Shown here in pieces: positions 25,833 through 59,743 of a DNA stretch of 64,000 nucleotides. A program made the position numbers and the translations under genes. Origin of the DNA: Candidatus Latescibacterota bacterium (GTDB taxonomy: Bacteria > Latescibacterota > UBA2968 > GCA-2709665); NCBI GenBank assembly GCA_965208835.1, contig OZ242358.1, positions 3,360,001 to 3,424,000 on the forward strand. Direction: 5' to 3'. Numbering within the stretch: the first letter of the stretch is position 1; each line of letters opens with the position of its first letter. The notes below the pieces were generated by a model, which was not told the origin of the DNA, did no database searches, and worked only from the letters and a program-made list of their open reading frames with translations.

Positions 25833-25836
25833 TTAG

Positions 25837-38947: not shown

Positions 38948-39580
38948 TCAGTTTCTTTCCTTCAACAACATCCTCATGTCGGGCAGGAGTTTCTTCACGA
39001 GACCGGGATCGGTCCCGTCGTAGTATGCCCGGACCCGCCCCTTTCTGTCCACCAGCGCAAAGCGCAGGCTGTGCATAATCTGGTCCGTGCCTTCTTCCAC
39101 GCCTCCCACACCCAGTTGAAAGCCGTTACGAATGACGCTGTACACACCGGGCTTCTCGCCTGTCAGAAACAGCCAGCGATCCGCATCCGCCAAGTAGCGG
39201 TCCGCATACCCGGAGAGCACCTCGGGGGTATCCCGCTCCGGATCCACGGAAAAAGACACGAGGCGCGCGTCCGGATATTTCCTCAGCGGCGCCTGGAGCG
39301 CCTGCATTTTCGCCGAAAGCAACGGACACGGACCCGCGCAGTGCGTGAAGATGAAGTCCGCGACCCAGACGCGGCCGAGCAGTTCCGAGAGACCCATCTG
39401 CCTGCCGCTGCGTTCCACGAGCAGGAAGTCAGGAACCTCGCCCAGAACCGGCATGCGCTGCGATTGGGCACGTATGGCCTTGAGTTCGCGCAGGAACAGA
39501 AACGTCCCCACGGTCAGCATCAATAGCGTCGCGCCGGCGAGCACCAGCCAGAAAACGCGAACCTGTCTGGGTACACCCAT
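38948..39580 (-). CDS. Sco1/SenC copper chaperone
   Basis: FTHCAGPCP, SVDPERDTP, HS. Confidence 0.92.
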   Translation of the reverse strand: MGVPRQVRVFWLVLAGATLLMLTVGTFLFLRELKAIRAQSQRMPVLGEVPDFLLVERSGRQMGLSELLGRVWVADFIFTHCAGPCPLLSAKMQALQAPLRKYPDARLVSFSVDPERDTPEVLSGYADRYLADADRWLFLTGEKPGVYSVIRNGFQLGVGGVEEGTDQIMHSLRFALVDRKGRVRAYYDGTDPGLVKKLLPDMRMLLKERN

Positions 39581-39585
39581 CGGTA

Positions 39586-41326: not shown

Positions 41327-41509
41327 AGGGACTCCTCAGAAGCTGTCTTTAAACTCCCAGCGGTCTTCGCGCGGCTGCCGGAACGACGGCGCGAGACACC
41401 GGGAACGTTCAAAGCCGCCGCATGTCGGAAACCGACGCGATCCCAAAAGAGAAAGGTGATAGGCAACCCCTATCACCTGGCAATACCCGGTTTGCGTCGA
41501 CCGACCCGA

Positions 41510-42412: not shown

Positions 42413-42433
42413 AAAAACAAAGTCCTCCAACGC

Positions 42434-43426
42434 TCAGTTTTCTACCTGCACCGTTGCGACCCTGGAATCTACTGCACCGCATATCCGCCATACGCGCAGC
42501 GTCAGCACCAGGCTGGTGGCAAGCACCGTCGCACCCACGACCACGTGTAACGTCGTGATTGCGACCGCCTTGCCCGTCCAGATCACCAGGGCCCCCAGCG
42601 CCAGTTGAACGACAAGCTGCGCCAACAAAGCCACGGAGGGCCTCGTCAGTTCGGGCCGGGATCCGTGGGCGCGCAGAACGCGGCACGCGGTCCAGACCAG
42701 AACGCCGGACACGACAACGGCCCACGCCCGATGGGCAAAGTGAATGGCAACACGTGTCCGGAACGTTTCGATTGAAATGGGAAACGGGTCCGTGGCGTCC
42801 ACAGTCAATTCGGAGAACGGCGGAATCAGGCGGCCGAAGGAAAGCGGAAAATCGGGAATGGCCAGGCCGGACTCGGTATGCCGCATCAGCGCGCCGAGGA
42901 CAAGCTGGATGAAAACCACCACCGTGCCGGCGGCGACCAGCCACTTCAGCGGCGCCCCGCCCGTCTCCGAAATCGGTTCCACCGCCGCCTGCCAGCCCGC
43001 CGACGTAAACAACGCGATGCCAACGGTAACACAGAAAAAGACTTGCGCCAGGCAGGCGTGACTTACGGAAATCCACGTGGGCAGGAGGTACAGAACCGTC
43101 AACCCGCCCAGCAGGCCCTGCAGAACAACCGCGGCCAGGGCTGCAACACCCAGGATTCGCAACCACCGCCGTTCTTCCCGCCGCCACAACCAGATGGCAA
43201 GAGCGGTCGTCAGGATCCCCACGAACGTCGCCACCATCCGGTGACCGTGTTCGTAGAAAATCCCGCCGATCATGGGCGGAAACACCATACCGTACGAAAG
43301 CGGCCAGTCAGGTACCGCCAACCCGGAGCCCGTACTGCTGACCATCGCACCGGCGAAAATTAAAAAAAGGGTGGCGCCGGCCGTGAACACGGAGAACCGG
43401 TGCAGCCAGCGATACCCCTTCGACAT
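42434..43426 (-). CDS. ctaA: heme A synthase (Cox15/CtaA)
   Basis: GSGLAVPDWP, EHGHR, LQGLLGG, HFAHR. Confidence 0.9.
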   Translation of the reverse strand: MSKGYRWLHRFSVFTAGATLFLIFAGAMVSSTGSGLAVPDWPLSYGMVFPPMIGGIFYEHGHRMVATFVGILTTALAIWLWRREERRWLRILGVAALAAVVLQGLLGGLTVLYLLPTWISVSHACLAQVFFCVTVGIALFTSAGWQAAVEPISETGGAPLKWLVAAGTVVVFIQLVLGALMRHTESGLAIPDFPLSFGRLIPPFSELTVDATDPFPISIETFRTRVAIHFAHRAWAVVVSGVLVWTACRVLRAHGSRPELTRPSVALLAQLVVQLALGALVIWTGKAVAITTLHVVVGATVLATSLVLTLRVWRICGAVDSRVATVQVEN

Positions 43427-43466
43427 CGCGATATCCATTTCCGTCCGGCTCACCCGCCAACCCCGG

Positions 43467-43757
43467 TCATTCCGCGTCGGCGGCAAGCCACTTGCCGTTC
43501 AAACCGGGCATTCCCGGCCGGCCCCGGGAATTATCCAGCGCGTTACCGAAACGTCGCGCCCGGCGCACCCAGAAGATCGTCACGCCCACAATTCCGACCA
43601 GCACGGACACGACAATCCCCATCAGCACCAGGACCCCCGCCGCAGCCCCCTTCGCCATATCGGATTCCGGATTCCCGTAACACACCGCGCATGCCCGAGC
43701 CACCTCGGGAATCATAACGCCAATGGCTACGGCCGCGGCAACGCAGGCGCGCCTCAC
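43467..43757 (-). CDS. small membrane protein with a CxxC motif
   Basis: Signal-like N-terminus, ARA-CAVCYG, one TM; GTG start coupled to the upstream stop. Confidence 0.65.
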   Translation of the reverse strand: MRRACVAAAVAIGVMIPEVARACAVCYGNPESDMAKGAAAGVLVLMGIVVSVLVGIVGVTIFWVRRARRFGNALDNSRGRPGMPGLNGKWLAADAE

Positions 43758-43960
43758 AGGTAACTCCATCCCTTGAGCTTTTTCAGAAACCAAAGGCCGT
43801 ACCAGACCAGGACGCCGCACCCGGCAAAGGAAGCGACGCCGAGTCCGAGATTCGTGCCGTTGCCCGTTGCGAGGTAGTCCTGAATCGCCCAGATGCCGAA
43901 ACCCAGACAGCACAGTACGGACACGGTGCCAAAGACCACGTGGAATGTTCTCAGAGACAT
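43754..43960 (-). CDS. small two-TM protein of the oxidase operon
   Basis: MSLRTFHVVF...WYGLWFLKKLK; RBS present. Confidence 0.7.
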   Translation of the reverse strand: MSLRTFHVVFGTVSVLCCLGFGIWAIQDYLATGNGTNLGLGVASFAGCGVLVWYGLWFLKKLKGWSYL

Positions 43961-43985
43961 TGGGTTCTCCGAATCTGGACTAACC

Positions 43986-44291
43986 CTACATTTCACCCAC
44001 GCCCGAAAATTCCGTAAATGAAGGCAGCAGCATCAGTAATACAAAAAAGGCGACCGTCACCGCCAGCACCCAGTAAATAATCTGTTTCTCGGAAACCAGA
44101 TGCATGAAATAGCCGGCGACCAGCCCGCCCTTGATACTCGCAATGAACAGTGCGATCAGGACCGTTACCGCAACCGACTCGATATGGAGATAGGAGACGG
44201 CGACCGTGACTACCGTCAGCACGGCCAGCGCGGCAAACACCAGAATGTAGACCCGAACATGCTTCCTGATCTCTTCAATGCTATCGGCCAT
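43986..44291 (-). CDS. ctaF: cytochrome c oxidase subunit IV
   Basis: Three TM segments, IASIKGGLVAGYFMHL. Confidence 0.85.
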   Translation of the reverse strand: MADSIEEIRKHVRVYILVFAALAVLTVVTVAVSYLHIESVAVTVLIALFIASIKGGLVAGYFMHLVSEKQIIYWVLAVTVAFFVLLMLLPSFTEFSGVGEM

Positions 44292-44301
44292 ACCAGGCTC
44301 C

Positions 44302-44901
44302 TTACAGCAAATAAAGTATCGGGAACAGAAAGATCCAGACCAGATCCACAAAGTGCCAGTAAAGTCCCGCACACTCGATCCGGTTGGCAAACTGCTCGGG
44401 GGCGGTATGCCAGAGCTTGCTTCCCGGGAACAGCAGGTAGACATTCACCACGATGCCGCCGATCACGTGCAGTCCGTGCAGGCCGGTCATCGTAAAATAC
44501 GTGGCGTAGAAGGTGCTGGTGGAAGGATAGATGCCGAGATGAAACTTGTGGGTGTATTCGAAGTATTTAACAACCAGGAATACGAACGAGAGCAACACCG
44601 TCAGGCCAAGATAAAGCTTGAACCTGCCGAAATTGTCCATTTTCAGGGATGCCCAGGACATAACCATGGTCACACTGGACGCGATGAGCACGAACGTATT
44701 CAGCGTGGCCAGCGGTACACTCAGCAGCTCCCAGCCATGAGGCCAGGTCGGCGCACCGACCCTGAGCAGCACCAGCGTTGAAAACAGTGCGCCAAACAGC
44801 ATGACCTCGGACGCCAGGAACAACCATATCCCGAATTTCCCGTTATACACCCCCGTAATGGGGTGCGGCTCCACCGTGTAGGGGATTTCTTCAACGGACA
44901 C
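44302..44901 (-). CDS. ctaE: cytochrome c oxidase subunit III
   Basis: WLFLASEVMLF, TGLHGLHV, GLYWHFVDLVW. Confidence 0.93.
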   Translation of the reverse strand: MSVEEIPYTVEPHPITGVYNGKFGIWLFLASEVMLFGALFSTLVLLRVGAPTWPHGWELLSVPLATLNTFVLIASSVTMVMSWASLKMDNFGRFKLYLGLTVLLSFVFLVVKYFEYTHKFHLGIYPSTSTFYATYFTMTGLHGLHVIGGIVVNVYLLFPGSKLWHTAPEQFANRIECAGLYWHFVDLVWIFLFPILYLL

Positions 44902-44917
44902 CGTTTATCTCCCTTAA

Positions 44918-45107
44918 CCAGGATTCGTATGGTTTCGTGGACGTGAATTCGAACACGTTTGAGTTGACAAAGGCGATTAAACTGCGGATTACCAGGATAC
45001 ACCAGGTCACTAAACGTGAACGGTATAAATGTCTTTCTGGACGACCTCTACGCCCCGTTTTGGCAGTCTTCGTCGCGTTGCCGCGTTGCTGTTCTTGTTC
45101 ATTGAGG
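44918..45107. mobile_element. MITE family A, copy 6 (inverted, diverged) inside the cox operon
   Basis: Reverse complement of the core gtgacctggtgtatcctggtaatccg; ends CC...GAGG. Confidence 0.8.
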
Positions 45108-45159
45108 TTCGTTTTCTCGGACGGATGCCGGGGTTCCAACGTGCCCCCAAGCGGCGGGC

Positions 45160-46956
45160 CTAATCGTCGTCCGCCGGCGTTGGCGCCGGTTCGGGTTCGG
45201 GTTGGGCCACCTGCCCGTTTTCAGACGCGTATTGAGGCGTAAAGTCGCTCGAGGCACCGGGCACGCTGTATTCGTAAGGCCCCCGGTAGACCTTGGGCGC
45301 GACGGCGAAATTTCCGTGCGGCGGGGGCGTCGGCGTCGCCCACTCGAGCGTGGTGGCCTGCCATGGATTGTCCGACTCCACCTTCTTGCCCTTCCTGATA
45401 CTCATAAAGAAGTTGACGATGAAGAATATCTGAGCCAGCCCCAGCAGCCAGGCAGACCAGGAACTCATGGCCGTCAGGCCCTGTACCTGAGCCCCGTAGG
45501 CATATTGGGTCTGGTCGTAGAGACGCCTGGAAACTCCGGCCATCCCAACGAACAACATCGGCATGAAGATACCGTTCATGAAGACCAGACTCGACCAGAA
45601 ATGCAGCTTACCCAGGGCCTCGTTCATCATGCGGCCCGTCACCTTGGGGAACCAGTAATAGACACCTGCAAACAGCGCGAAAATCGTTCCCGGCGCCACC
45701 ACGTAGTGGAAGTGGCCGATCACGTAATACGTGTCGTGCAGATGCAGGTCCGAGGCCGTGAGGCCCAGCGGCAGCCCGGTCAACCCCCCGATGGCGAACA
45801 TGGGGATAAACGCCAGGCAGAACAGCATGGGAACCGTAAACCGGATGGACCCGCCATGGAGGCTCAGCGCGAATGCGGTCAGGATGATTACCGACGGAAT
45901 GGAGATAATCATGGTTGTGGCCTGGAAGAATGTACTGATTGTCGTCCCCATCCCGGTCATGAACATGTGATGCGCCCACACGATAAACGACATGAAACCC
46001 AGAAAGACAATCGAGTAGACCAGCGTGCGATATCCCCACAGCGGCCGGCGCGTGTTGTTGGCCACGATCTCGCCTACGATGCCCATCGCCGGAAGAATCA
46101 GCACGTAGACTTCGGGGTGCGCGAGAAACCAGAACAGGTGCTGCCACAACAGCGGGCTTCCGCCGCCGCTCACCTCTAGCGGCTGTCCTGTGACCACCAG
46201 GCCGCTCGGCATAAAAAAGCTGGTACCCGCGATCCTGTCCATGAGTTGCAGGACCCCAGCGGCTTCTAGCGGCGGGAACGCCAGCAGCAGCAGAAACGCC
46301 GTCACAAACTGCGCCCACACGAAAAATGGCAGGCGGAAAAAGGTCAGGCCCTCGGCCCTCATCTGCACGGTCGTCACGATGAAGTTCACCGAACCCAGTA
46401 ACGACGACGTGATCAGGGCCACCATGCCCCATAGCCACCAGGTCTGCCCCGTCGGTGCGATGACGGCCAGCGGTGGATAGGAGGTCCAGCCGGACTGTGC
46501 CGCGCCTTCCGGAACGAAAAAGCTGGCCAGCATAATGACGCCGCCCACGAAGAACACCCAGTAACTGGCCATGTTGAGCTTGGGAAACGCCATATCAGGC
46601 GCACCGATCTGGAGAGGCAGCACGTAATTCCCGAATCCGCCCACGGCCAGCGGAACAACACCCAGAAAGACCATGATTGTGCCGTGCATCGCACCCAACT
46701 GATTGTAAAACTCGGGCACCATGATCCCTTCCGGCATATTTATCGCGCCGAACAACTTCCCGATCCAGGGCATCGGCTGTCCGGGATAGGCCAGTTGCCA
46801 ACGCATCATCATCATCAGGCAGAAGCCGAAAAACAGAAAAAACAGGGCGGTGACCGCGTACTGAATGCCGATGACCTTGTGGTCGATGGAAAAAACGTAC
46901 TTGCGCCAGTAGCTCAATTCGTGGTGTCCATGATCACCGTGCGCTTGCTCAGCCAT
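45160..46956 (-). CDS. ctaD: heme-copper oxidase subunit I (A1-like, lacking the K-channel Lys)
   Basis: MHG, GAPDMAFP, HPEVY, WAHH, HFH, RR. Confidence 0.95.
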   Translation of the reverse strand: MAEQAHGDHGHHELSYWRKYVFSIDHKVIGIQYAVTALFFLFFGFCLMMMMRWQLAYPGQPMPWIGKLFGAINMPEGIMVPEFYNQLGAMHGTIMVFLGVVPLAVGGFGNYVLPLQIGAPDMAFPKLNMASYWVFFVGGVIMLASFFVPEGAAQSGWTSYPPLAVIAPTGQTWWLWGMVALITSSLLGSVNFIVTTVQMRAEGLTFFRLPFFVWAQFVTAFLLLLAFPPLEAAGVLQLMDRIAGTSFFMPSGLVVTGQPLEVSGGGSPLLWQHLFWFLAHPEVYVLILPAMGIVGEIVANNTRRPLWGYRTLVYSIVFLGFMSFIVWAHHMFMTGMGTTISTFFQATTMIISIPSVIILTAFALSLHGGSIRFTVPMLFCLAFIPMFAIGGLTGLPLGLTASDLHLHDTYYVIGHFHYVVAPGTIFALFAGVYYWFPKVTGRMMNEALGKLHFWSSLVFMNGIFMPMLFVGMAGVSRRLYDQTQYAYGAQVQGLTAMSSWSAWLLGLAQIFFIVNFFMSIRKGKKVESDNPWQATTLEWATPTPPPHGNFAVAPKVYRGPYEYSVPGASSDFTPQYASENGQVAQPEPEPAPTPADDD

Positions 46957-46968
46957 AAACAAGGCTCC

Positions 46969-47739
46969 TTAGAAGGAAAAATCGTCTTCTTCGTCCGCGG
47001 CGCCGGACTGCTCGTCGAACCAGGCCTGAAACGTCTCCTCCGACTCAACCGTCAACTGCCCGCGCATGCGGTAGTGCCCCAGTCCGCATAGCTGGGCGCA
47101 GGCGATGTCGAATGTTCCGGTTCTGGTCGCCTCGAACCAGATCCTGATGTCCTGGCCCGGAATCGCATCCTGCGTCAGGCGCATCACGGGGATTTTGAAA
47201 CTGTGAATGACATCCTTCGACGAAATGTGCGCAATGACGGGTCTGTCCTTCACAATGTGCAGATTGTTGATGGCATTGAAATCGTCGCTGCCGTCAGGAT
47301 CGTCGGGATCCAGGCCCAGCAGATTGTCAGCACTGACGAATTCGGGTGCCGTCCGTCCGAATTTTCCGTCTTTCCCGGAGTAATGAATATTCCAGGCAAA
47401 CTGCTCGGGTACCACCCGCACCACAAGCGCGTCGGATTCGTCGGGAAACGCGTGTTTGAAGTCGGCCCAGAGCGGCATGGACAGTCCCACAAGCAGTACG
47501 GCCTCGACGACGATCACGCCGTACTCCACGTATTTGGCGGTTTTTCCCTTGACGGGATCGTAGTTCGCGTCAGGGTTTGCCCTTCTCCGGTAGCGGACAA
47601 GGCAGTAGACGAAGAAGACGCCCCAACCCAGAAACAGGGCAATCATAAACACATGCAGCCAATTGATCAGCCAATCCACGGTTGCGCCGTGGGTTGAGAT
47701 GTCAATTGGCAGCCAGTAACCGTACACCTTTTCTTGCAT
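46969..47739 (-). CDS. ctaC: cytochrome c oxidase subunit II (CuA)
   Basis: Two TM segments, DVIHSF, CAQLCGLGHYRM. Confidence 0.93.
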   Translation of the reverse strand: MQEKVYGYWLPIDISTHGATVDWLINWLHVFMIALFLGWGVFFVYCLVRYRRRANPDANYDPVKGKTAKYVEYGVIVVEAVLLVGLSMPLWADFKHAFPDESDALVVRVVPEQFAWNIHYSGKDGKFGRTAPEFVSADNLLGLDPDDPDGSDDFNAINNLHIVKDRPVIAHISSKDVIHSFKIPVMRLTQDAIPGQDIRIWFEATRTGTFDIACAQLCGLGHYRMRGQLTVESEETFQAWFDEQSGAADEEDDFSF

Positions 47740-48804: not shown

Positions 48805-51800
48805 CTATCGTCTGGTGAGCCGGGAATCCTGATGGAGGCCGTGGATGATGTAATCCGTAAGCGCCTCGATGACCACGTCAGTCGGCAGAACGAGAAAACC
48901 GTCCTCCGGCTTGACCCCCTCGGGCAGCTTCAGATAGGCGGCCATTTCCTCGGGAAGGTACGTCATTTCTTCGCCGAAGAACGTGGGCATCTTGGTGCCC
49001 GGCTGAAGCTTCTGCGGATCCCACAGCCAGTCCCTGATCCACGCCTGTTTCAACCGCTCCCTACCCAGCTTCAGGTCGGGCGCCCAGCTTGCCGGGTCGC
49101 CCGTGGGCTTGATATCGCCCTGCTGGTGGCAGGTGAAACAGTTGTAGATGTCCTGACTGAACAGTTTTCTTGCACCGATCATCTCTTTTGAATTCAACCG
49201 TTTATGTACAAAAGTCGCGTACGGAAACTGTTCCTTGTCCAGTCGGGAAAAATAGGTGACCAGGTCGATGGCGTGCTGGTCTTCGAAGCCGAACGTGGGC
49301 ATCCGCGTCTCGAGCCAGGGCCGGATTGGCTCCACATTCTTCAGGAAAGCGAAGAACCAGTCCGGCTGGACTTTCCTGCCTTCGCCGTTCAGGGACGGCG
49401 GCACGTAGCCCTCGGCGTCGGACGCGGAGACTTCCTCGGCACCGTAAGCCTTCACGAGAGGATCCCGGATCGCCCCGCCCTGGTTCTCCACAACGTGGCA
49501 CCCTTTGCAATTCCTGTCGTATACCAGCCAGCGTCCCTTCTCGATGTCGACTTCGTCGGGCTCCAGGCGTTTGACCGCATCGGTGCCCACCTGGCTCCGG
49601 TTCAGGCTCAACAGCGCTGTCGTCAACGCGTGCGCGTCTGCATCGCTCAGGCCGAACTGCGGCATACGCAGCTTGTCGTCGAACTGCCTTACTTTGCCCT
49701 TGTCGAAGACACGGGGCTGTTTGAGCTTCTTGAAGAGCCAGTCGTGACGCGTGTAGGGAATGGCGTCCGGATCGGTGTTGTAGGCGCCAGGTTTCCTGGC
49801 CAGCAGACCGAAATCCAGCTTGTCCACGTCCTTGCTGCCTTGCTCGGTCAACTCCGTGCCGATGGGCTGGGTATCTTCGAATCCGGGAATGAGATGGCAT
49901 CCGAAGCAGCCTTGCCGGGAGATGATCTTTTCACCCAGCCAGATGTCCCGCTCGTGACTCGACATCTCAGCCAGTTGCAGCTTCGCGGTCTTCACGGGCA
50001 ACCGGCTTCGCAGATAATTCAGGACCAGGTCGTCGCGCACCTGCGCGTCCACCGCGGCCACCTGCCGGGCTTCAAACTCCGTATTCCGAAGCGTCAGCAG
50101 ATACGCCGATATGTCTGCCGCCTCACGGTCGGTCAACCTCAGATTCGGCATGCGCGTGTCCGGGAAATAGGCCGTGGGATCCTTCAACCACGCGTAAAGC
50201 CAGCCCTCGGACAGCTTGCTGCCCACGTCGTTCAGGTTCGGCCCGAAATTCCGGAGTCCATATTCCTGGCCCAGACGGTCGTCTGCGCCCACCACGTGGC
50301 AGGCCTTGCAACCCACCATTTCGACGAGTCGCTCGCCCCGCCCGGCATCGCCTTGTACCGGCGGCGACGGGTATTCGGGCCGCTCGGACTTCTCGAAGAT
50401 ATACGACACAACGGCATTGACCGCGGCCGTATTGCGCGCGATATCCTCCGGCCCGCTCACGTTGGCCAGATCGAAGATCTTGGGCATCTTGGTGGTTGGC
50501 CGGAACCCCTTGGGATCCCGGACCCACTTGATGGCCCAGTTTCGATCCAGCTTGCCTGCCGCCTTTCGCAGGTCCGGCCCGACCTTCCGCTGATCCTGCA
50601 GGGTATGTTTCGCGATTTTGTGGCAGCCGGCACACCCCAGCGTACGAACGAGATGGAGGCCGCGATTCAGCCGGTCCGCTTCAGGGACGTCCACAACGCC
50701 CGCGTGGCACTGGGCGCACGAAGCTTCCACGTAGCGGCCGGGCAGCATGGGGTGGTCCCAATACTTCATCTTCTTCCAGCCGTACAGCTTCTTCCAGCGG
50801 GCAGCCTCGACGTCGTCGCTCGGGGTATGGGCCGTATTCTTGAACGTCACGCCCCGATCCCTTCCGAGGTGACAGGTGGTGCATCCGGACTCGGAGAGGG
50901 GATGGGGAGAGCCGCTGCTCAGGAAGAGGTCCAGTCTCGGATGTGTGGCGAACGTCCTGGTGCGCCCAAGCCGGACGTCGTCTTCCGCGTAGACCGTTTC
51001 CATGTAGGTTTTCAGCGTCTCATCCTTGAACCAGCCGGTTTCCGGATCGAGCTCGTAACCCGGTCGATCGATGTTCACGTGGCAGGTTGTACAGCGGTCC
51101 ACCCGGGGAACCCGGGTAAAGTTGAGCTCGTTTCTCAGGTCGGCCAGAACGACCTGCCTGACCTTGATGGAAGGATCGATAAAATCGACCATCGGCAGGT
51201 TTCGGAACACGTTTGGGAAACTGGGAACGAGACCCGTCAGCTTTCGCCTCAGGTTATCTTCATCCTTGTGTAGCGCGCGACGACGGGACTCCAGGGCCTG
51301 TCGCTGCCCGGCCACTTCGTCGATGATCTTCTGCTGCGCCTTCTGCTTTTCCTCCACGGCCTCCCTGGTCAGCCGGAACTCGTACATCCGGGCTTCCATG
51401 GCTTTCATCTCGGCCTTTTTCTCTGCCGCCGTTTCGTCATGCCCGGCTTTGGCAGCGTCTTCATACTCAAACTTCGCCACATCGTACATCGCTTTTTCAA
51501 ACTTAAGCCTCTGATCGGCGCTGTACCACTCCGCCTGAGTGAGGCGCTTCAATTCGGTCGTCGCCGCGCCCACACGTTCCTGGTGTGCCCGAATCGAGGC
51601 CTCTATTCCCGCGAGTTCATCCTCAATCGCCTTCAGCGCGCCCTGATCGACGTTCTGCTTTGCCAGCTCGATTTCGGCTTCGGTCTTGAACGCCTCCAGC
51701 GCCATCGCTTCCTTCTGAAAACCCTTCCATTCGCGGTCGTAGTCATCCCAGACCATCCAGATTACGGACAGAACCAGCACCACGCTGGACAGGGCGAAAA

Positions 51801-51858
51801 TCATGTTCATTTTGTCTACATTGTAGACAAAATCGATGAAGCGTTTCGGCTCATTCAT
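48805..51858 (-). CDS. membrane-anchored octaheme cytochrome c
   Basis: Eight CxxCH motifs counted; N-terminal TM plus coiled coil; repeated W..DP....P.T.MP. Confidence 0.9.
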   Translation of the reverse strand: MNEPKRFIDFVYNVDKMNMIFALSSVVLVLSVIWMVWDDYDREWKGFQKEAMALEAFKTEAEIELAKQNVDQGALKAIEDELAGIEASIRAHQERVGAATTELKRLTQAEWYSADQRLKFEKAMYDVAKFEYEDAAKAGHDETAAEKKAEMKAMEARMYEFRLTREAVEEKQKAQQKIIDEVAGQRQALESRRRALHKDEDNLRRKLTGLVPSFPNVFRNLPMVDFIDPSIKVRQVVLADLRNELNFTRVPRVDRCTTCHVNIDRPGYELDPETGWFKDETLKTYMETVYAEDDVRLGRTRTFATHPRLDLFLSSGSPHPLSESGCTTCHLGRDRGVTFKNTAHTPSDDVEAARWKKLYGWKKMKYWDHPMLPGRYVEASCAQCHAGVVDVPEADRLNRGLHLVRTLGCAGCHKIAKHTLQDQRKVGPDLRKAAGKLDRNWAIKWVRDPKGFRPTTKMPKIFDLANVSGPEDIARNTAAVNAVVSYIFEKSERPEYPSPPVQGDAGRGERLVEMVGCKACHVVGADDRLGQEYGLRNFGPNLNDVGSKLSEGWLYAWLKDPTAYFPDTRMPNLRLTDREAADISAYLLTLRNTEFEARQVAAVDAQVRDDLVLNYLRSRLPVKTAKLQLAEMSSHERDIWLGEKIISRQGCFGCHLIPGFEDTQPIGTELTEQGSKDVDKLDFGLLARKPGAYNTDPDAIPYTRHDWLFKKLKQPRVFDKGKVRQFDDKLRMPQFGLSDADAHALTTALLSLNRSQVGTDAVKRLEPDEVDIEKGRWLVYDRNCKGCHVVENQGGAIRDPLVKAYGAEEVSASDAEGYVPPSLNGEGRKVQPDWFFAFLKNVEPIRPWLETRMPTFGFEDQHAIDLVTYFSRLDKEQFPYATFVHKRLNSKEMIGARKLFSQDIYNCFTCHQQGDIKPTGDPASWAPDLKLGRERLKQAWIRDWLWDPQKLQPGTKMPTFFGEEMTYLPEEMAAYLKLPEGVKPEDGFLVLPTDVVIEALTDYIIHGLHQDSRLTRR

Positions 51859-51960
51859 CGAACGGCTCCGGGGCGGTGGCGTACACCCTGAGTGCCGCCA
51901 CCAGCCCAATCAGATATACCACGGAATGTTGCGGCGGCGCCGGAAACCAAACGAGAACCC

Positions 51961-53037
51961 TCAGATATTGAAGAAATACTCCGGTATGGCGACAATGTAC
52001 TTCAGGTTGAACAGCCAGCGAAGCAGCATCTTGATGGGGAGGGCAACCATACAGAGGAAGAAGAATATCATCACGCTGTAGCGTGCGAATCCCATCGTCT
52101 TGTAGAATTCCTTGAACACGGTCTGCGCAAGTAAGGGCGGCGGCACCAGAAAATACAGGATGACCACCAGAAAACCCCATATCTCGCGCGTCAACCAGAA
52201 CGATGGCAAACCCGTTCCAAGCCACTGGACGTAGATGTACTCCGACATATTGACGTTGACAAGGGCTTCCAGTTTGTGCACGTCCCAGAATTCGTAGGGT
52301 CCGAAGAAGTTCCAGTTCGGGCCGCGCAGAAACGTGCCAATCATGATCAGCAGCACCCACAGCACCACAAAACCGAATAGAAATACCGTAATGGCGAACC
52401 GGCGTTCCTTGAACGTGTAATAGCCCAGCCCCTTGGGATTCCGGTCGATATACGGAATGGCCATGAGCCCCACGATGACAAGTGTGGGAAGGACAACCCC
52501 GGCGATCCATGGATCGTAATACACCAGCATTTCCTGCAGCCCCAGGAAATACCAGGGCGCCTTGGAAGGATTGGGTGTTTTCGCCGGGTTGGCCGGCTCC
52601 TCGATGGGCGCCTTGATGAGCACGGACCAGAGAACCAGGAACACAGTAGCCAGGGTCAGGCAGATCAGCTCCGTGTAGACCAGATGCGGCCAGGTGAGGA
52701 CCTTTTCCTTGAATTCGGCTTTCTCTACCGGACCTTCTCCCCTCGCGATGCGATCGTCGTTATCGTACCCCTGTTTCAGACTGTACCAGACAAAGAAACC
52801 CACCAGAAACAGCAGCATGACAATGGGTATATTGTCTCCCTTTGTCACAATGATGCGGAAATTCTCGTCCTGAAAACTTACAAGGAAAAACACAATGGAG
52901 ATGATCAGGGCGGGGAGGCCGAACCGGACCGTCCAGACCCAGCGGGTCCGCAAGGCCAGGAAAAAAAGCACGGCAAACAACGGCAGGAAATATTCAGGCG
53001 TGAGAAGCCAGTTAACGAAGCCTTTCAGAACGTCCAT
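51961..53037 (-). CDS. cytochrome b subunit IV-like protein (extended)
   Basis: ANPAKTPNPSKAPWYF (PEWY variant), PYIDRNP; extra TM segments. Confidence 0.85.
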   Translation of the reverse strand: MDVLKGFVNWLLTPEYFLPLFAVLFFLALRTRWVWTVRFGLPALIISIVFFLVSFQDENFRIIVTKGDNIPIVMLLFLVGFFVWYSLKQGYDNDDRIARGEGPVEKAEFKEKVLTWPHLVYTELICLTLATVFLVLWSVLIKAPIEEPANPAKTPNPSKAPWYFLGLQEMLVYYDPWIAGVVLPTLVIVGLMAIPYIDRNPKGLGYYTFKERRFAITVFLFGFVVLWVLLIMIGTFLRGPNWNFFGPYEFWDVHKLEALVNVNMSEYIYVQWLGTGLPSFWLTREIWGFLVVILYFLVPPPLLAQTVFKEFYKTMGFARYSVMIFFFLCMVALPIKMLLRWLFNLKYIVAIPEYFFNI

Positions 53038-53082: not shown

Positions 53083-53868
53083 CTACATCGGGCCGGAAAT
53101 CCCTCCGTCTTTTCGGACCCGCCAGAAGTGGACAGCCATAAGGACAGCCGCAACGAACGGGATGAAGAGACAATGCAGGACATAGAACCTCAGAAGCGCG
53201 CCTTCCCCGACGAACCGACCCCCAAGCAACGCGAAACGGGCATCGTCGCCGGCGTGGACCAGATTGATATCACCAAGCATCAGGAACGCCGCCCCCGGAC
53301 CTTCATGCCCGAGAAACGGGGTTGCCCGCGCCATATTCGCCCCTACGGTTATCGCCCAGATGGCAAGCTGGTCCCAGGGCAACAGATACCCGGTAAAACT
53401 CAAGAGCAGCGTCAGCAGCAACAGAATGACGCCGATCGCCCAGTTGAATTCCCGGGGAGGCTTGTATGATCCCGTCATAAACACGCGCAACATATGCAGC
53501 CAGACCGTAATGATCATCGCGTGGGCGCCCCAGCGATGGATCTCCCGCATGATTCCCAACGGCACCTGCTCGCCCAGGTCGATGATGTCGGTATAGGCGT
53601 ATTCGAGCGTGGGCCGGTAGTAGAACATGAGCAGAATGCCCGTTATGGTCTCGATCAGAAAAATAAAAAAGGTGAGCCCACCCATACACCACGTGTAGCG
53701 CACCCGGATTCCTGATTTCGGGGTCCGAACGGGATGCAGATGCAGGAATACGTTCGTCAACACCACCTGCGCCCGGCCGCGTTCGTCTCTCGGTACGTCG
53801 TGCCGGAAGACGGACTTCCATATTTGAGAGCGTTTTGTCCGGTCCAGGAGGCCGGAAAATTTCGGCAT
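53083..53868 (-). CDS. cytochrome b6-like N-terminal cytochrome b
   Basis: WCMGG (heme ci Cys), IHRW..H...[24 protein letters not shown]. Confidence 0.93.
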
Positions 53869-53895
53869 ACCGTGTTCTCCCGATTATACCGCTAT

Positions 53896-54055
53896 CAGTC
53901 CGTTGATAAAGTCGCTCTGCAGGCGAGGCCGAGCCATTGTGGGCGAAGACAAGGCGCGCAACCGAGTCCCATCGAGCGATTCGGCGAGGGAGCGCAACGC
54001 AGTTTTTCGACCGCAAGGGCCGGCCGCAGCCCGGATGGACTTTTTTAACGGGCTG
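53896..54055. mobile_element. MITE family B, copy 2
   Basis: Near-identical to 20199-20358; CTAT duplication. Confidence 0.88.
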
Positions 54056-54151
54056 CTATGCTGAAACTGACAAGAAAACCGCGTAAAGGAGGCTTCAGAA
54101 GTGTACCTGCACCCCCGCGAAAACCGCGGAGGTGACTTTTCGACAGCTTGT

Positions 54152-55102
54152 TCAGATACGCAAAAAGGACTCCGGGTTGTCCCAATGCCCTTTTTCATAC
54201 TGGAATTTCCGTGTTTTGTCGACCAGTACCTGGCCGTCCTCGGCAAGTACGATGCGCGCCCTTTCCAGCGGACGCGGGGCCGGACCCTCGAAATTGATGC
54301 CCGTCATATAAAAACCGCTGCCGTGACAGGGACACTTGAATTTCTGTTCGTTTCCAAGCCAGTTGGGCGTACAACCCAGATGCGTGCAAACCGAAATGAG
54401 CGCGAACATATCCTGCGTGGTTTTTACAATCCAGACGCTGAACTTGTCTTTCCAGCGTTCATCCACACCCAGGTCGTAGTCATCCGCGAACCCGATCTTG
54501 AATGACTGGGGCGGCTCGAACAGCACATTCGGGAACAGGAAGCGTGCGAAACCCAGAAGTCCCGCGGTCGAAGCGACCGCAAATGACGCCCACGCCAGGG
54601 TCAGCCACGTAAAAAATCCGCGGCGGGTGGTCATGCCACCTTCGGCCACGGACTGTGTTCTCTCCGGCCCGGGGCGAATCGCGGGCGGGGCGGGCGACGT
54701 CTGCACGATCACGCGTTCCGCAGCCGGCTCGTCGGTTTTCTGCGTTAACGCGCGGGCGGCCGCGGCCCTGTCCGCGGTGGTCGCTGCTTTTTTGGCAGGC
54801 GCGCCTGCCGGCGCGGCCTTGCCGCCACCACGGGCCTTGCGTATCAACTCCGCCTTGGCCTTCGCGCGGGCAACGCGATCCTGGATATCGTCAAGCGACG
54901 AAAGATCCACCTCGGCGGCTTCGGTATCGCCACCGGAATCGTCGGCGGCCTGCGCGGACGCTCCCTCCGCCGGCTCTGCCACGGACTCATCGCCCGCGGC
55001 GGCCTCCCGGGCCTTGCGAATCGCTTCCGCTTTCGCCTTGGCCCTGGCCACCCGATCCGGAATTTCGTCGAATTCCGACAGATCGATTTTGTCTTCCGAC
55101 AT
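54152..55102 (-). CDS. Rieske 2Fe-2S subunit with a long N-terminal extension
   Basis: CTHLGC, CPCHGS, GPAPRPL; internal Tat-like TRRGFF plus TM. Confidence 0.93.
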   Translation of the reverse strand: MSEDKIDLSEFDEIPDRVARAKAKAEAIRKAREAAAGDESVAEPAEGASAQAADDSGGDTEAAEVDLSSLDDIQDRVARAKAKAELIRKARGGGKAAPAGAPAKKAATTADRAAAARALTQKTDEPAAERVIVQTSPAPPAIRPGPERTQSVAEGGMTTRRGFFTWLTLAWASFAVASTAGLLGFARFLFPNVLFEPPQSFKIGFADDYDLGVDERWKDKFSVWIVKTTQDMFALISVCTHLGCTPNWLGNEQKFKCPCHGSGFYMTGINFEGPAPRPLERARIVLAEDGQVLVDKTRKFQYEKGHWDNPESFLRI

Positions 55103-55225
55103 GTTATCCCCCGGAAACCTGCCGAGCGGTTTTCGAGCGGAAACACTTCAGGGCTTGGTTATACGTGATATAAGACAGGGAAATACTGGAAATTGAATCA
55201 CTTACAGCGCAAAATACACCGGCCA

Positions 55226-55254
55226 AATATATCGAAATCATCCCGAATTGTCAA
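55226..55254 (-). promoter_or_regulatory. sigma70-type promoter for the bc-oxidase operon
   Basis: TTGACA-17 bp-TATATT. Confidence 0.65.
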
Positions 55255-55361
55255 GCGGGATTTTCCGTAGATACGGACCTCCCGGGGACGTAGAAAAAGG
55301 GACCCGACAGGCACTCATAAAGGGCCGGATCCCCCGCTGCAATACCGTCTGTTCGCGCTGT

Positions 55362-56270
55362 TCATTTCTTCCCCCATACATTCAGAATTTCTATGGCGGC
55401 CTGCCGGACACGCAGGTCCGAATCCTGTTCGCGCAGGCGCTGCAGCGCGGGGGTCAGGGACCTGGCGTTGAGCATGCCCACGGCCCTGATCGCCTCGACA
55501 AGGATATTGCGACGGCCCTCGCCACTTATCCGATCGAACCCTTCCAGGTATCCCGGGCTCAACATCTCCTCCAGCACCTCCAGGCCCGCATTATTTCCCG
55601 CGACGGCCAACTGCAGGGCGGCATTCCAGCGAACGTCGGGCGCGCGGTCGTGAAGCGCCTGTTCCAGCGCCGGCGGAACGAGAGGGTCGTCCAATCCCCC
55701 CAGAGCGTATACCGCGGCCTTGCGCAATCCCGCGTCGTCGTTCGATGCGATTCTGATCAGGTGCGGCACGGCGACCGGGTCTCCCTGCGCCCTCAGCGAA
55801 AACATCGCGTTGATCCGGGTTTCGTCGTCAGGGTCTTCCAATGCGGCGATCAGAACGCCGACGAGTTCGGAATCCTGTACCCTTCCCATGGCCGCGGCCA
55901 GAAAACGCCTGACTCGGGGGTCGTCCGACCGGGAAGCCTCGAACACCCGGATCAACTTTCCGACAAACCTGCGGCCGATCCGACCTTCGCGCTGCTCCTG
56001 GTCCAGGACGGTGGCCAGTTCGTACGCGGCCTGCCACCGGCTGTTGATTCCGCCCACCCGAATTGTATTGAGATAGTCTTCCGCCGTCTTTCGCTCGACC
56101 GTCAACAGCCCCAGTCCCAGGTATATTGCAAGCCCGACCAGAATGATCGCCACGGGAAAAATGACGAACTGCGAGACCAGTCTCGCCCTGGAGACGTCCG
56201 CGTCCGAAACCGGAGCGGTGGCGTCTTCGGCGATTTTTCTGAGTTCCTCTTCGGGAGTCTGCTGGTCCAT
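55362..56270 (-). CDS. membrane-anchored HEAT-repeat protein
   Basis: N-terminal TM; repeats D..VR..A..ALG. Confidence 0.85.
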   Translation of the reverse strand: MDQQTPEEELRKIAEDATAPVSDADVSRARLVSQFVIFPVAIILVGLAIYLGLGLLTVERKTAEDYLNTIRVGGINSRWQAAYELATVLDQEQREGRIGRRFVGKLIRVFEASRSDDPRVRRFLAAAMGRVQDSELVGVLIAALEDPDDETRINAMFSLRAQGDPVAVPHLIRIASNDDAGLRKAAVYALGGLDDPLVPPALEQALHDRAPDVRWNAALQLAVAGNNAGLEVLEEMLSPGYLEGFDRISGEGRRNILVEAIRAVGMLNARSLTPALQRLREQDSDLRVRQAAIEILNVWGKK

Positions 56271-56300
56271 ACGACAACCCCTGTCCAAAAAACACCTTAA

Positions 56301-56624
56301 CAGTCCGTTGATAAAGTCGCTCTGCAGGCGAGGCACGGTGTCCCGTCCCGGAAATATGTCACCATTCATCCGCCGATTCATCCCGTCTGGTGGCGTTGCC
56401 TTCGCTCGGCGACCACGGACAGGTCTCCTTGCTCAGGCGCCTTGCCAGCCGGGTGACTCGGCGGTCGAATTTCGGCAATCTATTTCCGGGTCGGAACACT
56501 TGCCATTGTGGCCGAAGACAAGGCGCGCAACCGAGTCCCATCCTGCGATTCGGCGAGGGCGCGCAACGCCGTATTTCGACCGCAAGGGCCGGCCGCAGCC
56601 CGGATGGACTTTTTCAACGGGCTG
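56301..56624. mobile_element. MITE family B, long variant
   Basis: Both TIRs present, with extra internal sequence. Confidence 0.8.
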
Positions 56625-56654
56625 TCAGAGCCGACGCGCAAGTACACAGGGTCC

Positions 56655-56684
56655 AATATAACCAGAGGCCACACACGCTGTCAA
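56655..56684 (-). promoter_or_regulatory. possible sigma70 promoter for the HEAT gene
   Basis: TTGACA-18 bp-TATATT. Confidence 0.5.
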
Positions 56685-56735
56685 GATCGGTGTCATGACC
56701 CGCGAATTCCTGACCATTCAACCGCCGATTCACCC

Positions 56736-56764
56736 TTGACAACCCTGGTGAAAGACCTTATTTT
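56736..56764 (+). promoter_or_regulatory. sigma70-type promoter for the ferredoxin gene
   Basis: TTGACA-17 bp-TATTTT. Confidence 0.6.
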
Positions 56765-56822
56765 AGCCTTGGATGGCATGACTCACGCAGGCAGGCACAT
56801 TCTAACCGGAGATTACGACTCA

Positions 56823-57557
56823 GTGAACGTAGACCTTACCCAGTTTGACAACATCTCCGACCGGGTGGCTCGCGCCAGGGCCAAAGCCGACGCCGTGCGG
56901 AAAGCCAAAGAGGGCGCCGGCGACGCCGCGGAAGCCGCGTCCGACGCAGCCAAAGCCGCACCGGAAGCCGCGACCGCCGTCGCGGAAGTCGAAAGCGAAC
57001 CTGCCGGCCTTGCCATTCTCGAATTCAGGCCCGGCATGCATTTCAAACTGAACGGGCGTGCCGGACGGACCGTGGGTATCCGCTACGACCTGGTCAGCTT
57101 CGTTTACGATGACGACCCCGACCAGCTCATTACCGCGGACCGGTACCGCCTCAGCCACGCGCACGCGGAGGGCACGCTGGAATTCGCCCCGAAGTCAGAA
57201 GTCTACCGTCCGGAGCGAGTCTCCAGGAAAGAACGCGTCGACTATCACGAACACCTCTGGCTTGAATCCCGCTCCGGCATGACGGCCAAGAAGAAGCGGC
57301 CGCGGCATATCGCCATTATCAACCCGGACTATTGCACAGGCTGCAACGCCTGCATCGAAGTTTGTCCAACGGACTGTATCGAGGAAGTTGACGTGGCCGA
57401 CGCCGGCCTGGACGGCATCGGCACGTTCTGCGAAGTCCGGCTGGAAGACTGTATCGGATGCATCCAGTGCGTACATATCTGCCCGTGGGAAGCCATCGAA
57501 ATGGTGGGCACCCAGCAGGTTGAAGAGGCGTACGGCATCCCCGTGGGGACATTGTAG
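56823..57557 (+). CDS. 2x[4Fe-4S] ferredoxin-domain protein with N-terminal extension
   Basis: CTGCNACIEVCP and CIGCIQCVHICP; GTG start after GGAG. Confidence 0.88.
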   Translation: MNVDLTQFDNISDRVARARAKADAVRKAKEGAGDAAEAASDAAKAAPEAATAVAEVESEPAGLAILEFRPGMHFKLNGRAGRTVGIRYDLVSFVYDDDPDQLITADRYRLSHAHAEGTLEFAPKSEVYRPERVSRKERVDYHEHLWLESRSGMTAKKKRPRHIAIINPDYCTGCNACIEVCPTDCIEEVDVADAGLDGIGTFCEVRLEDCIGCIQCVHICPWEAIEMVGTQQVEEAYGIPVGTL

Positions 57558-59512: not shown

Positions 59513-59581
59513 CGTCCTCTCCGCCTGTCTATTCAAAACGCGCGCACGAGCCGGACGCCGCCGCCCTCTTGCGTGCGTTAG

Positions 59582-59710
59582 CAGTCCGTTGAACAAGCCG
59601 CTCTGCAGGCGAGGTATGCTGTCCCGTACAGCGATTCGGCGAGGGAGCGTAACGCAGAATTCCGACCGCAAGGACCGGCCGTAGCCCGGATGGGCTTCTT
59701 CGACGGGCCG
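59582..59710. mobile_element. MITE family B, short diverged variant
   Basis: cagtccgttg ... cgacgggccg ends and shared body. Confidence 0.75.
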
Positions 59711-59743
59711 TCAGGCCCGGAGCGTATCATTCCTGAGAGAATT

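Follow-up and report, generated by a model that had tools for sequence, protein, structure and literature searches.

A peptide tag common to a Rieske protein and a neighbouring ferredoxin in Latescibacterota suggests a ferredoxin tethered to a b6-type complex

Why should the Rieske subunit of a cytochrome bc complex and a divergently encoded ferredoxin carry the same short peptide near their N termini? The two proteins are encoded in a 64,000-nt stretch of Candidatus Latescibacterota bacterium (GCA_965208835.1, contig OZ242358.1, positions 3,360,001 to 3,424,000 of the forward strand), hereafter the window. Our tentative answer, in which we place slightly less than even confidence and which is drawn from sequence comparison, is that the peptide is a lineage-specific docking tag that would keep an SH3-ferredoxin module next to a b6-type complex, on its haem-cn side.

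The tag in three copies

The tag has the 25-residue consensus DLSxFDxIxDRVARAKAKAEAxRKA and occurs three times in the window, twice in the Rieske protein and once in the ferredoxin (Table 1). The peptides quoted from these proteins in an initial annotation were letter-perfect, and a six-frame search of the whole 64-kb window with the core regular expression [DE]R[VIL]A[RK]A[KR]A[KR]A returned exactly the same three copies. Across aligned 36-residue segments, the three copies share 16 invariant positions. Because pairs of copies differ by 10-12 synonymous codon differences (versus 5-9 amino-acid changes) and are identical at only 48-55 of 75 nucleotides, they do not stem from a recent DNA duplication. 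Copy 1, with its own signature of F at position 5 and P at position 9, is kept in 28/28 related genomes; copy 2 is found in 20 of 29 loci (window included) and is missing from the nine that have a single-copy Rieske protein. Signatures specific to each copy recur from genome to genome, which suggests distinct, non-interchangeable roles.

Table 1. Features of the tagged locus, in window positions
Feature	Positions	Strand	Basis and remarks
Multihaem cytochrome c, 1034 aa, final gene of bc operon	48805..51909	-	Pfam cytochrome c families; syntenic in related loci
Subunit IV-like C-terminal half of cytochrome b	51961..53037	-	Pfam Cytochrom_B_C, E 3e-8
Cytochrome b6-type subunit	53083..53868	-	Pfam Cytochrome_B, E 5.4e-41; PDB relatives cytochromes b6, E 8e-41
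Rieske [2Fe-2S] subunit, 316 aa	54152..55102	-	Pfam Rieske, E 7.5e-8; NCBIfam b6f PetC-like, below cut-off; orthologues
Twin-arginine motif TTRRGFF and hydrophobic signal anchor	54533..54631	-	T158, T159, R160, R161, G162 and F164 invariant in Rieske alignment
VIVQTSPAPPAIRPGPER segment of Rieske arm, residues 131-148	54659..54712	-	Columns invariant or nearly invariant in Rieske alignment
DRAAAARALT segment of Rieske arm, residues 111-120	54743..54772	-	Conserved in Rieske alignment
Tag copy 2, DLSSLDDIQDRVARAKAKAELIRKA, Rieske residues 66-90	54833..54907	-	Regular expression and alignment
Tag copy 1, DLSEFDEIPDRVARAKAKAEAIRKA, Rieske residues 7-31	55010..55084	-	Regular expression and alignment
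HEAT-repeat protein, 302 aa from ATG 56270	55362..56270	-	Pfam HEAT_2, E 1.3e-25; one N-terminal TM helix
Tagged ferredoxin, 244 aa: tag, linker, SH3-like barrel, connector, 2x[4Fe-4S]	56823..57557	+	ORF, Pfam, model
Tag copy 3, DLTQFDNISDRVARARAKADAVRKA, ferredoxin residues 4-28	56832..56906	+	Regular expression and alignment
Variable Ala/Glu/Gly-rich linker, residues 31-62	56913..57008	+	Pairwise identity 0.33; pLDDT <50
SH3-like small beta-barrel, residues 63-125	57009..57197	+	pLDDT 77-91; >90 in anchor protein
PsaC/NuoI-type 2x[4Fe-4S] domain, residues 166-244	57318..57554	+	Pfam Fer4 families; net charge -14

Among 18 ferredoxin orthologues, pairwise amino-acid identity is 0.82 in the tag, 0.33 in the adjacent linker and 0.88 in the Fe-S domain; judged by these alignments, the tag is conserved about as strongly as the Fe-S domain. 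Third codon positions agree less often in the linker (0.34) than in the tag, barrel, connector or Fe-S domain (each ~0.49). The acidic half, DLSxFDxI, varies as little as the basic helix, and the invariant positions are common to three protein classes. Such constraint speaks against an inert low-complexity spacer of the RnfC/RsxC-tail kind, with no specific partner. The tag is indeed rich in Ala, Lys and Arg, and its RVARAKAKA core resembles the AIARAKARK of six RsxC tail repeats, a likeness that had been pointed out at the outset; the RnfC/RsxC tail, too, repeats helical stretches rich in Ala, Lys and Arg, and it belongs to a membrane redox complex, on a cytoplasmic Fe-S subunit. RsxC lacks the acidic half, however, and a tag HMM built from 72 instances found no match in E. 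coli K-12 RsxC (hmmsearch with filters off: E = 5, full score -53, best domain -2.4 bits), so the likeness did not hold up. With a true spacer of far lower identity lying alongside the tag, we consider an inert role very improbable indeed.

AlphaFold2 predicts two helices around copy 3, at residues 6-10 and 14-33 (pLDDT 73-79), and the tag can be pictured as two helices with a kink between them, the first short and acidic (DLSxFDxI), the second basic and rich in Ala (DRVARAKAKAEAxRKA). The basic helix carries a charge of +4 to +5. Across the three copies its muH is only 0.10-0.14 and its mean hydrophobicity is negative (-0.12 to -0.27), values on which we rejected a lipid-binding amphipathic helix. 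Pfam, NCBIfam and the PDB contain no entry for the tag, which on this evidence is a compact, highly conserved peptide module new to all three.

A b6-type complex, a HEAT protein and an SH3-ferredoxin

The locus reads cytochrome c, subunit IV, cytochrome b6, Rieske, HEAT and then the divergent ferredoxin. Among 28 related genomes, this order is complete in the 25 contigs of sufficient length and is kept over the covered part in the other three, with the HEAT gene between the two tag carriers in 28/28. Cytochrome b is split over two ORFs, b6 and a separate subunit IV (from Pfam, with b6 as best PDB relatives). In the b6 subunit, the YTWCMGG stretch around Cys61 (codon 53686..53688) aligns on FYCLGG of b6 chains 7r0w_I and 2zt9_A; according to PMC7908018, Cys35 of cytochrome b6 is the covalent attachment site of haem cn. 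Cys61 thus aligns as the equivalent of the haem-cn cysteine, the haem itself being predicted. The split b6 and subunit IV, the Cys35-equivalent and the twin-arginine-anchored Rieske protein are all as in b6f/b6c-type complexes. Unlike those, the complex of the window has a 1034-aa multihaem c subunit, a tagged Rieske arm and dedicated genes for HEAT and tagged SH3-ferredoxin proteins, and its setting is not photosynthesis: an aa3-type oxidase operon lies immediately downstream. Such a setting is that of a high-potential aerobic chain, where textbook schemes offer no obvious place for a low-potential ferredoxin, a point that counts against docking.

The Rieske protein, whose cluster-binding boxes CTHLGC and CPCHGS are invariant among orthologues, has an N-terminal arm of ~155 residues that is predicted to be cytoplasmic and lies ahead of the twin-arginine signal anchor. 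Both tag copies precede TTRRGFF and the hydrophobic anchor, which makes the earlier suggestion that the tagged N termini face the cytoplasm plausible. Farther along the arm, the DRAAAARALT segment (A114, A116, R117, L119 and T120 invariant, R112, A113 and A115 nearly so in the Rieske alignment) is possibly a decayed basic half-tag.

We place the start of the ferredoxin at GTG 56823 (VNVDL...), which has GGAG 11 nt upstream and matches orthologues that begin MNVDLSQFD; the start of the longest ORF, GTG 56508, was rejected on the same grounds. Foldseek returned weak SH3/KOW/Tudor-type matches for the barrel, every one at E >0.001, with NdhS (6khi_S) at rank 29 and PetP not among the matches listed. 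A profile of 17 barrels gave 0 matches at E <= 10 against all PDB sequences, and the barrel matched no Pfam family at E <= 0.1. The Fe-S domain has polyferredoxin MvhB, FwdF and PsaC as PDB relatives and NuoI as its best NCBIfam match, below cut-off; AlphaFold2 modelled it poorly (pLDDT ~30), which counts against the docking reading. Two genomes have a split variant, in which a tagged, membrane-anchored SH3 protein accompanies a small untagged ferredoxin of 105 aa encoded beside the anchor gene, so that tags and SH3 barrel stay together on the anchor. The membrane-anchor proteins carry 2-3 tags, and since one member is without any cysteine, Fe-S cluster binding by the anchor class is unlikely.

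The HEAT protein has its TM segment at residues 31-58; a longer ORF (to 56381) extends into a repeat element. Mean K+R in the TM flanks is 2.86 versus 1.97, with the C-flank richer in 23/29 proteins, a weak charge bias that would place the HEAT domain in the cytoplasm; its weakness counts against docking. The best NCBIfam matches of the HEAT protein are bilin-lyase-type repeats (CpcE, E 8.7e-10; NblB, 9.8e-9), far below cut-off. These matches are part of the case for another explanation, in which the tags are an assembly or maturation handle read by a dedicated biogenesis factor and the SH3-ferredoxin is a reductant for cofactor insertion, not a stable subunit. The factor might be a CpcE/NblB-like HEAT chaperone or lyase, or might retain the Rieske precursor in the cytoplasm until cluster insertion, ahead of Tat export. 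Such a handle would suit Rieske tags that lie in the n-region before the twin-arginine signal, a b6 subunit with a cysteine requiring a haem-cn attachment system, and fixed carriers that are both Fe-S proteins. However, the lyase-like matches amount to generic HEAT-repeat similarity, the substrate of haem-cn attachment is cytochrome b6, itself untagged, and the anchor variant has 2-3 tags, with a member in which Fe-S binding is unlikely; further, distant tag relatives described below belong to NuoI, a protein that Tat does not export. We regard an assembly role as unlikely, though not negligible.

Distribution of the tag and its distant relatives

To survey the tag at the DNA level, we scanned genomes of 185,579 species, one per species (596 Gb), with the back-translated core. 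Matches fell in 29 contigs, 28 of which are the same locus in Latescibacterota-type genomes; this concentration in one locus indicates that the tag is more than chance. The 29th contig, from Maricaulis, matches without the DLSxFD half and was judged a chance match. When 1.84 billion representative proteins were searched with a tag profile, 25 matched at E <= 0.001, every one a Rieske, ferredoxin or anchor protein of the tagged type or a Marinimicrobia NuoI tail. Random occurrence on non-redox proteins, one of the outcomes that the initial annotation had named as fatal to its docking idea, was therefore not seen. Nor was another, absence from orthologues: a tagged Rieske protein occurs together with a tagged ferredoxin or anchor in 29/29 loci (28 genomes and the window), and 44 of 46 ferredoxin-family proteins have a recognisable tag. 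Because the tag is restricted to few proteins, and many carriers would be expected of a general sorting or membrane signal, such a signal is disfavoured. Restriction to a single locus, presence in orthologues and HEAT synteny fit a tag that would link the ferredoxin to the bc complex. Copy number varies, with two Rieske copies and one on the ferredoxin in 20 loci, one and one in seven, and one Rieske copy with two on the anchor in two; such numbers do not point to a set stoichiometry (a three-helix bundle, for example), which counts against docking.

The sole other tag-like carriers in the protein search are C-terminal repeats of Marinimicrobia NuoI (E 1e-5 to 9e-4; P0060-P0063). The label Candidatus Marinimicrobia / Fidelibacterota comes from the source names on 5/20 matches, and the sequences are uncharacterised database proteins (P0060-P0080). 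By hhalign, the NuoI repeat matches the tag with a probability of 97.3% (E 1.7e-11, 32 columns), and the first ~32 residues of the repeat (DLSxLNxIxDRVxRGxAK...) are homologous to it. Two or three repeats, on Ala/Pro/Glu-rich linkers, follow a cytoplasmic-side PsaC/NuoI-type 2x[4Fe-4S] respiratory subunit. Unlike the tag, the NuoI unit is ~65 residues long, has two extra helices, is C-terminal and belongs to complex I, not to a Rieske protein or a free ferredoxin; in Latescibacterota, conservation of this unit is limited to its first half, the second being ...EVAxxVKxALEEAGKLTPEVAxxVAxLA. A single BLASTP comparison aligned ferredoxin residues 3-63 with P0060 residues 244-310 (37% identity, E 1e-6), in which the poorly conserved linker, modelled as disordered, weakly matches the second half. 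On these alignments, distant relatives of the tag are again found on a PsaC/NuoI-type 2x[4Fe-4S] subunit of a respiratory complex, which counts in favour of docking. These NuoI relatives, the SH3-like domain, the split variant and the haem-cn cysteine of cytochrome b6 are four features absent from the initial annotation.

Proposed docking of the ferredoxin module to the b6-type complex

On our reading the tag, borne on long flexible linkers, would be a protein-protein docking element, and in Latescibacterota its carriers would be only cytoplasm-facing partners from one respiratory locus. One partner would be the Rieske N-terminal arm in a Rieske/cytochrome b complex of b6 type with a predicted haem cn; the second would be the SH3-like barrel with its PsaC/NuoI-type 2x[4Fe-4S] ferredoxin or, where the gene is split, the membrane-anchored SH3 half. 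The tags might unite these partners by binding one another or by way of a common adaptor, for which the obvious candidate is the HEAT protein, membrane-anchored and encoded between the two. The ferredoxin module would then lie at the n-side, where haem cn would be exposed, and could serve there as a wire for electron entry or exit, in the manner of the ferredoxin sites of PsaE/PsaC and NdhS/NdhI. Docking is favoured by the placing of the tags at predicted cytoplasmic termini, on variable linkers of low complexity, by the split variant, in which tags and barrel remain on one anchor, and by the haem-cn cysteine of the b6-type cytochrome b.

The same basic helix could act by charge alone. As an electrostatic capture arm, the tethered helix would bind an acidic surface and not another tag, concentrating partners at the membrane surface; its targets could be the very acidic Fe-S domain of the ferredoxin, the anionic head groups of lipids or some other acidic redox partner in solution. 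The opposite charges of helix and Fe-S domain (+4 to +5 and -14) favour such an arm, as do long disordered linkers that suit fly-casting and a split variant in which the free ferredoxin is untagged and its anchor partner has 2-3 basic helices. Yet simple electrostatics would not need the equally invariant DLSxFDxI, the muH and hydrophobicity values are not those of a lipid-binding helix, two of the carriers are already membrane-embedded, and in most genomes the ferredoxin is itself tagged. We consider a capture arm distinctly unlikely.

Docking at the n-side would have parallels. In NdhS/NdhI of NDH-1 and PsaE/PsaC of photosystem I, an SH3 fold is paired with a 2x[4Fe-4S] subunit. In cyanobacterial b6f, the SH3-fold protein PetP is described as binding on the cytoplasmic face, where it lies no more than 16 A from haem cn, at a proposed Fd-FNR site (PMC9342900). 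PetP, NdhS and PsaE are all small SH3-type barrels on the cytoplasmic side of membrane electron-transfer complexes, the place proposed here for the SH3-like barrel. The latter has no sequence similarity to them, however, and its fold matches are generic and weak, which counts against docking. It also differs in being fused to the ferredoxin, with tag and linker, whereas PetP, NdhS and PsaE have no peptide tag in common with a Rieske subunit.

The question whether haem cn in b6-type complexes receives electrons from ferredoxin or another soluble donor on the n-side has long stood open in photosynthesis research (PMC7908018; also PMC9342900). Here, in a non-photosynthetic lineage, a dedicated SH3-ferredoxin shares a tag with the Rieske arm and is encoded in the same locus as the complex, offering a natural system for purifying, imaging and measuring a putative connection from ferredoxin to b6. 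If the tags serve assembly instead, they would still be markers of new biogenesis factors for Rieske/b6 complexes. The homologous form of the tag on complex I in a second candidate phylum raises the possibility of a general means of tethering Fe-S subunits. A tag common to a Rieske protein and a neighbouring ferredoxin in this little-known phylum suggests that the ferredoxin is tethered to the complex. A bolder version, which we hold to be doubtful, is that Latescibacterota have a haem-cn Rieske/b6 complex with its own n-side ferredoxin-type port, an SH3-positioned 2x[4Fe-4S] module leashed by the tag to the Rieske arm, with the HEAT protein as organiser. Were it true, an arrangement only hypothesised for chloroplast b6f would be realised in Latescibacterota, and the Marinimicrobia NuoI peptides would belong to a wider set of docking modules wiring cytoplasmic Fe-S subunits in FCB group phyla.

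Three copies of a peptide on a Rieske arm and a ferredoxin

The initial annotation had described a peptide motif present twice on the Rieske protein and once on the divergently transcribed ferredoxin, and a six-frame regular-expression search of the 64-kb window found this to be accurate: the core of the 25-residue peptide (hereafter the tag) occurs in exactly three copies, with no further one, namely DLSEFDEIPDRVARAKAKAEAIRKA at Rieske residues 7-31, DLSSLDDIQDRVARAKAKAELIRKA at Rieske residues 66-90, and DLTQFDNISDRVARARAKADAVRKA in the ferredoxin. The three aligned 36-residue tag segments share 16 invariant positions. The true start of the ferredoxin is GTG 56823, with GGAG 11 nt upstream and a product of 244 aa; an M/V-N-V-D-L opening is common to this protein and its orthologues. 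Because the tag copies differ at the DNA level by 10-12 synonymous codon differences against 5-9 replacements, they are, judged by their codons, old paralogues maintained by selection on the peptide, with no recent duplication.

The tag opens with an acidic half (net -5) in which L, F and I share one face; its second half is Ala-rich and basic (net +5 across residues 17-33 of the Rieske protein). Because the three 18-residue basic helices of the tag (net +4 to +5) have a very low hydrophobic moment (0.10-0.14), we ruled out a lipid-binding amphipathic helix. The tag could also be read as an electrostatic arm that captures acidic partners, which we consider quite unlikely; the PsaC/NuoI-type 2x[4Fe-4S] domain of the ferredoxin is itself acidic (net -14).

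The ferredoxin comprises five parts: tag, linker, barrel, basic connector, and 2x[4Fe-4S] domain. AlphaFold2 models its tag as two helices (residues 6-10 and 14-33, pLDDT 73-79), residues 31-62 as a disordered, variable Ala/Glu/Gly linker, and residues 63-125 as a confident small beta-barrel (pLDDT 77-91); the Fe-S domain is of poor model quality. When models of the ferredoxin and of the anchor protein (a tagged SH3-like protein at two other loci) were compared with the PDB by Foldseek, the barrel grouped with SH3/KOW/Tudor-type barrels, all of them generic small folds, with no match at E <= 0.001. Sequence profiles revealed no relative of the barrel in the PDB or Pfam (the barrel profile found nothing among PDB sequences), and no Pfam or NCBIfam family covers it.

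Features of the window and of the split-gene regions at two related loci
Feature	Position	Strand	Remarks
Two paralogous genes	4664-5977, 7257-8684	minus	stretches (repeats D4, D7) of 72-74% DNA identity
Second intergenic repeat, ~195 nt, direct	10117-10311, 19840-20034, 21246-21440, 25642-25836, 25849-26033		five copies
Second intergenic repeat, ~195 nt, inverted	44915-45096		one copy
762-aa protein, almost all ankyrin repeats	15662-17950	minus	Ank_2, E 2e-72
Intergenic repeat, ~120-170 nt	20196-20361, 53893-54058, 56297-56627, 59548-59713		four interspersed copies, 62-94% identity
Family-B DNA polymerase gene	34546-36672	plus	
aa3-type cytochrome c oxidase operon	38948-47739	minus	directly downstream of bc operon
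SCO1	38948-39670	minus	
CtaA	42434-43486	minus	
COX3	44302-44901	minus	
COX1	45160-46962	minus	
COX2	46969-47739	minus	
Multihaem cytochrome c	48805..51909	minus	1034 aa
Subunit IV-like protein	51961..53037	minus	
Cytochrome b6-type subunit	53083..53868	minus	
Rieske ORF	54152..55102	minus	316 aa
Membrane-anchored HEAT-repeat protein	55362..56270	minus	
Split-gene region, locus L019	6974-8311		
Split-gene region, locus L043	~7100-8275		

The cytochrome b has its nearest relatives in the b6 of cyanobacteria and chloroplasts (E 8e-41), and its Cys61 aligns with b6 Cys35, the residue of covalent haem cn attachment (PMC7908018). Among NCBIfam models, those of the selenite/tellurite-reduction operon rank above the b6 and subunit IV models: ExtP is best for the cytochrome b (268.8 bits, cut-off 290), as is ExtQ for subunit IV. 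A weak positive-inside bias would place the HEAT domain in the cytoplasm; the best NCBIfam models for this protein are bilin-lyase-type repeats (CpcE, NblB, CpcF), far below cut-off. Because its gene adjoins that of a b6 with the haem-cn cysteine, a role for the HEAT protein in haem-cn attachment is conceivable. The tag itself may serve as a handle for assembly or maturation, a reading we hold to be unlikely.

Since the aa3 operon comes immediately after the bc operon, the two may form a single aerobic respiratory super-operon; an ABC-2 transporter pair is interposed among the oxidase genes. One copy of the ~120-170 nt repeat lies within the bc operon, between the cytochrome b6 and Rieske genes, and another separates the divergent HEAT and ferredoxin genes and makes the longest ORF of each too long; the repeat has no Rfam family, and an Rfam scan of the whole window gave no matches. 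Elsewhere in the window, the ankyrin-repeat protein and the family-B DNA polymerase gene are both unusual on a bacterial chromosome segment, and the two paralogous genes have no Pfam match.

Distribution of the tag and selection on its sequence

To survey genomes, we scanned one per species (185,579 species) with the back-translated tag core, a pattern that misses variants such as AKAKSEA and was applied outside metagenome and viral contigs, and found 47 loci on 29 contigs. The match in Maricaulis is due to chance, as the acidic half is absent. The remaining 28 contigs (among them, by label, 20 Latescibacterota/Latescibacteria and 6 Gemmatimonadota/Gemmatimonadetes/Gemmatimonas) all carry the same locus, and wherever the contig suffices, tblastn with the window proteins recovers the gene order cytochrome c, subunit IV, cytochrome b6, Rieske, HEAT, divergent ferredoxin. 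The nearest locus to that of the window, L004, has 97-100% amino-acid identity.

With the window included, the tag is found on both the Rieske and the ferredoxin side at 29 of 29 loci: two Rieske copies and one ferredoxin copy at 20, one of each at seven, and one Rieske copy with two on the anchor at two (L019/L020 and L043/L044). Since seven loci hold two tags, we rejected a constant sum of three per locus. At the last two loci the ferredoxin gene is split. The anchor protein, which no Pfam or NCBIfam family covers, combines the same barrel with a C-terminal transmembrane hairpin and bears two complete tags, plus a decayed basic helix as the third; its gene is followed by one for a separate 105-aa 2x[4Fe-4S] ferredoxin without a tag, and the Rieske protein bears a single tag. 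The strict tag pattern occurs in 41 of 46 ferredoxin-family proteins from the databases (at least 211 aa, E below 1e-95), and clear variants in three more; in the other two, the N-terminus is replaced in one and the tag decayed in one.

Across 18 ferredoxin orthologues, mean pairwise amino-acid identity is 0.82 in the tag, 0.78 in the barrel, 0.88 in the Fe-S domain, and 0.33 in the linker, and identity at third codon positions is 0.34 in the linker and ~0.49 in the other four parts; that the tag is an inert spacer is highly improbable. Each copy also keeps its own signature across genomes (F5 and P9 in Rieske copy 1; L5, Q9 and AEL in Rieske copy 2; Q4 in the ferredoxin). The copies thus group by position, not by genome, which led us to reject concerted evolution or gene conversion and argues for distinct roles.

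Relatives in protein databases

We built a profile from the three copies in the window; against 1.84 billion representative proteins (a 50%-identity library) it gave just 25 matches at E <= 0.001. Of these, 21 are proteins of this locus type (Rieske, ferredoxin or anchor) or fragments of such proteins; the other four (P0060-P0063) belong to another family, NuoI of complex I, whose PDB relatives are NDUFS8/TYKY. The NuoI carriers (P0060-P0080), labelled Candidatus Marinimicrobia or Fidelibacterota where named (5 of 20 matches), have a C-terminal extension of two to three repeats of ~65 residues each, for which we found no covering Pfam model or solved structure. The first half of this unit is homologous to the tag (hhalign 97.3%, 32 columns). 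A pairwise BLASTP match raises the possibility that the ferredoxin linker, a stretch variable among orthologues, is a decayed remnant of the second half.

No Pfam or NCBIfam model covers the tag, its profile gave chance matches alone against PDB sequences (E above 1), and the ESM Atlas held no usable look-alike for the NuoI repeat or for tag plus barrel. No description of the module turned up in the libraries searched or, in a limited check at title/abstract level, in the literature on Rieske extensions, Latescibacterota respiration and RnfC/RsxC repeats; PMC5449189 proved unrelated to it.

A putative docking element at the Rieske/b6 complex

Because it is conserved, flexibly tethered, and restricted to two cytoplasm-facing proteins flanking a conserved HEAT gene, the tag would most simply be a specific protein-protein docking element. 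The initial annotation had proposed such a docking function together with a likeness to RnfC/RsxC: the restricted, syntenic and conserved carriers (29/29 loci) agree with the former, and we rejected homology to RsxC, as the tag profile has no significant match in the E. coli protein (E = 5). The reading we tentatively favour is that the tag, on its flexible tethers, links the SH3-ferredoxin module to the Rieske arm, by direct contact or via the HEAT protein; the ferredoxin would then be held at the n-face of the haem-cn-bearing complex. In two complex predictions, made without controls, residues 60-302 of the HEAT protein and 1-125 of the ferredoxin were combined with residues 1-36 of Rieske as partner, each under a separate alignment; both scored 0.00 and have no bearing either way on binding. 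The probability left after this reading and its three rivals falls to partners we have yet to consider.

The Rieske/b6 complex is of a known class; new are the putative docking peptide and the putative tethered accessory ferredoxin. Photosystem I and NDH-1 carry SH3 plus 2x[4Fe-4S] pairs, which parallel the SH3-ferredoxin of the window. A further parallel is PetP, an SH3-fold protein that lies within 16 A of haem cn, where the Fd-FNR site is proposed to be (PMC9342900). By analogy with these systems, an electron-port function for the ferredoxin at the complex would be attractive.
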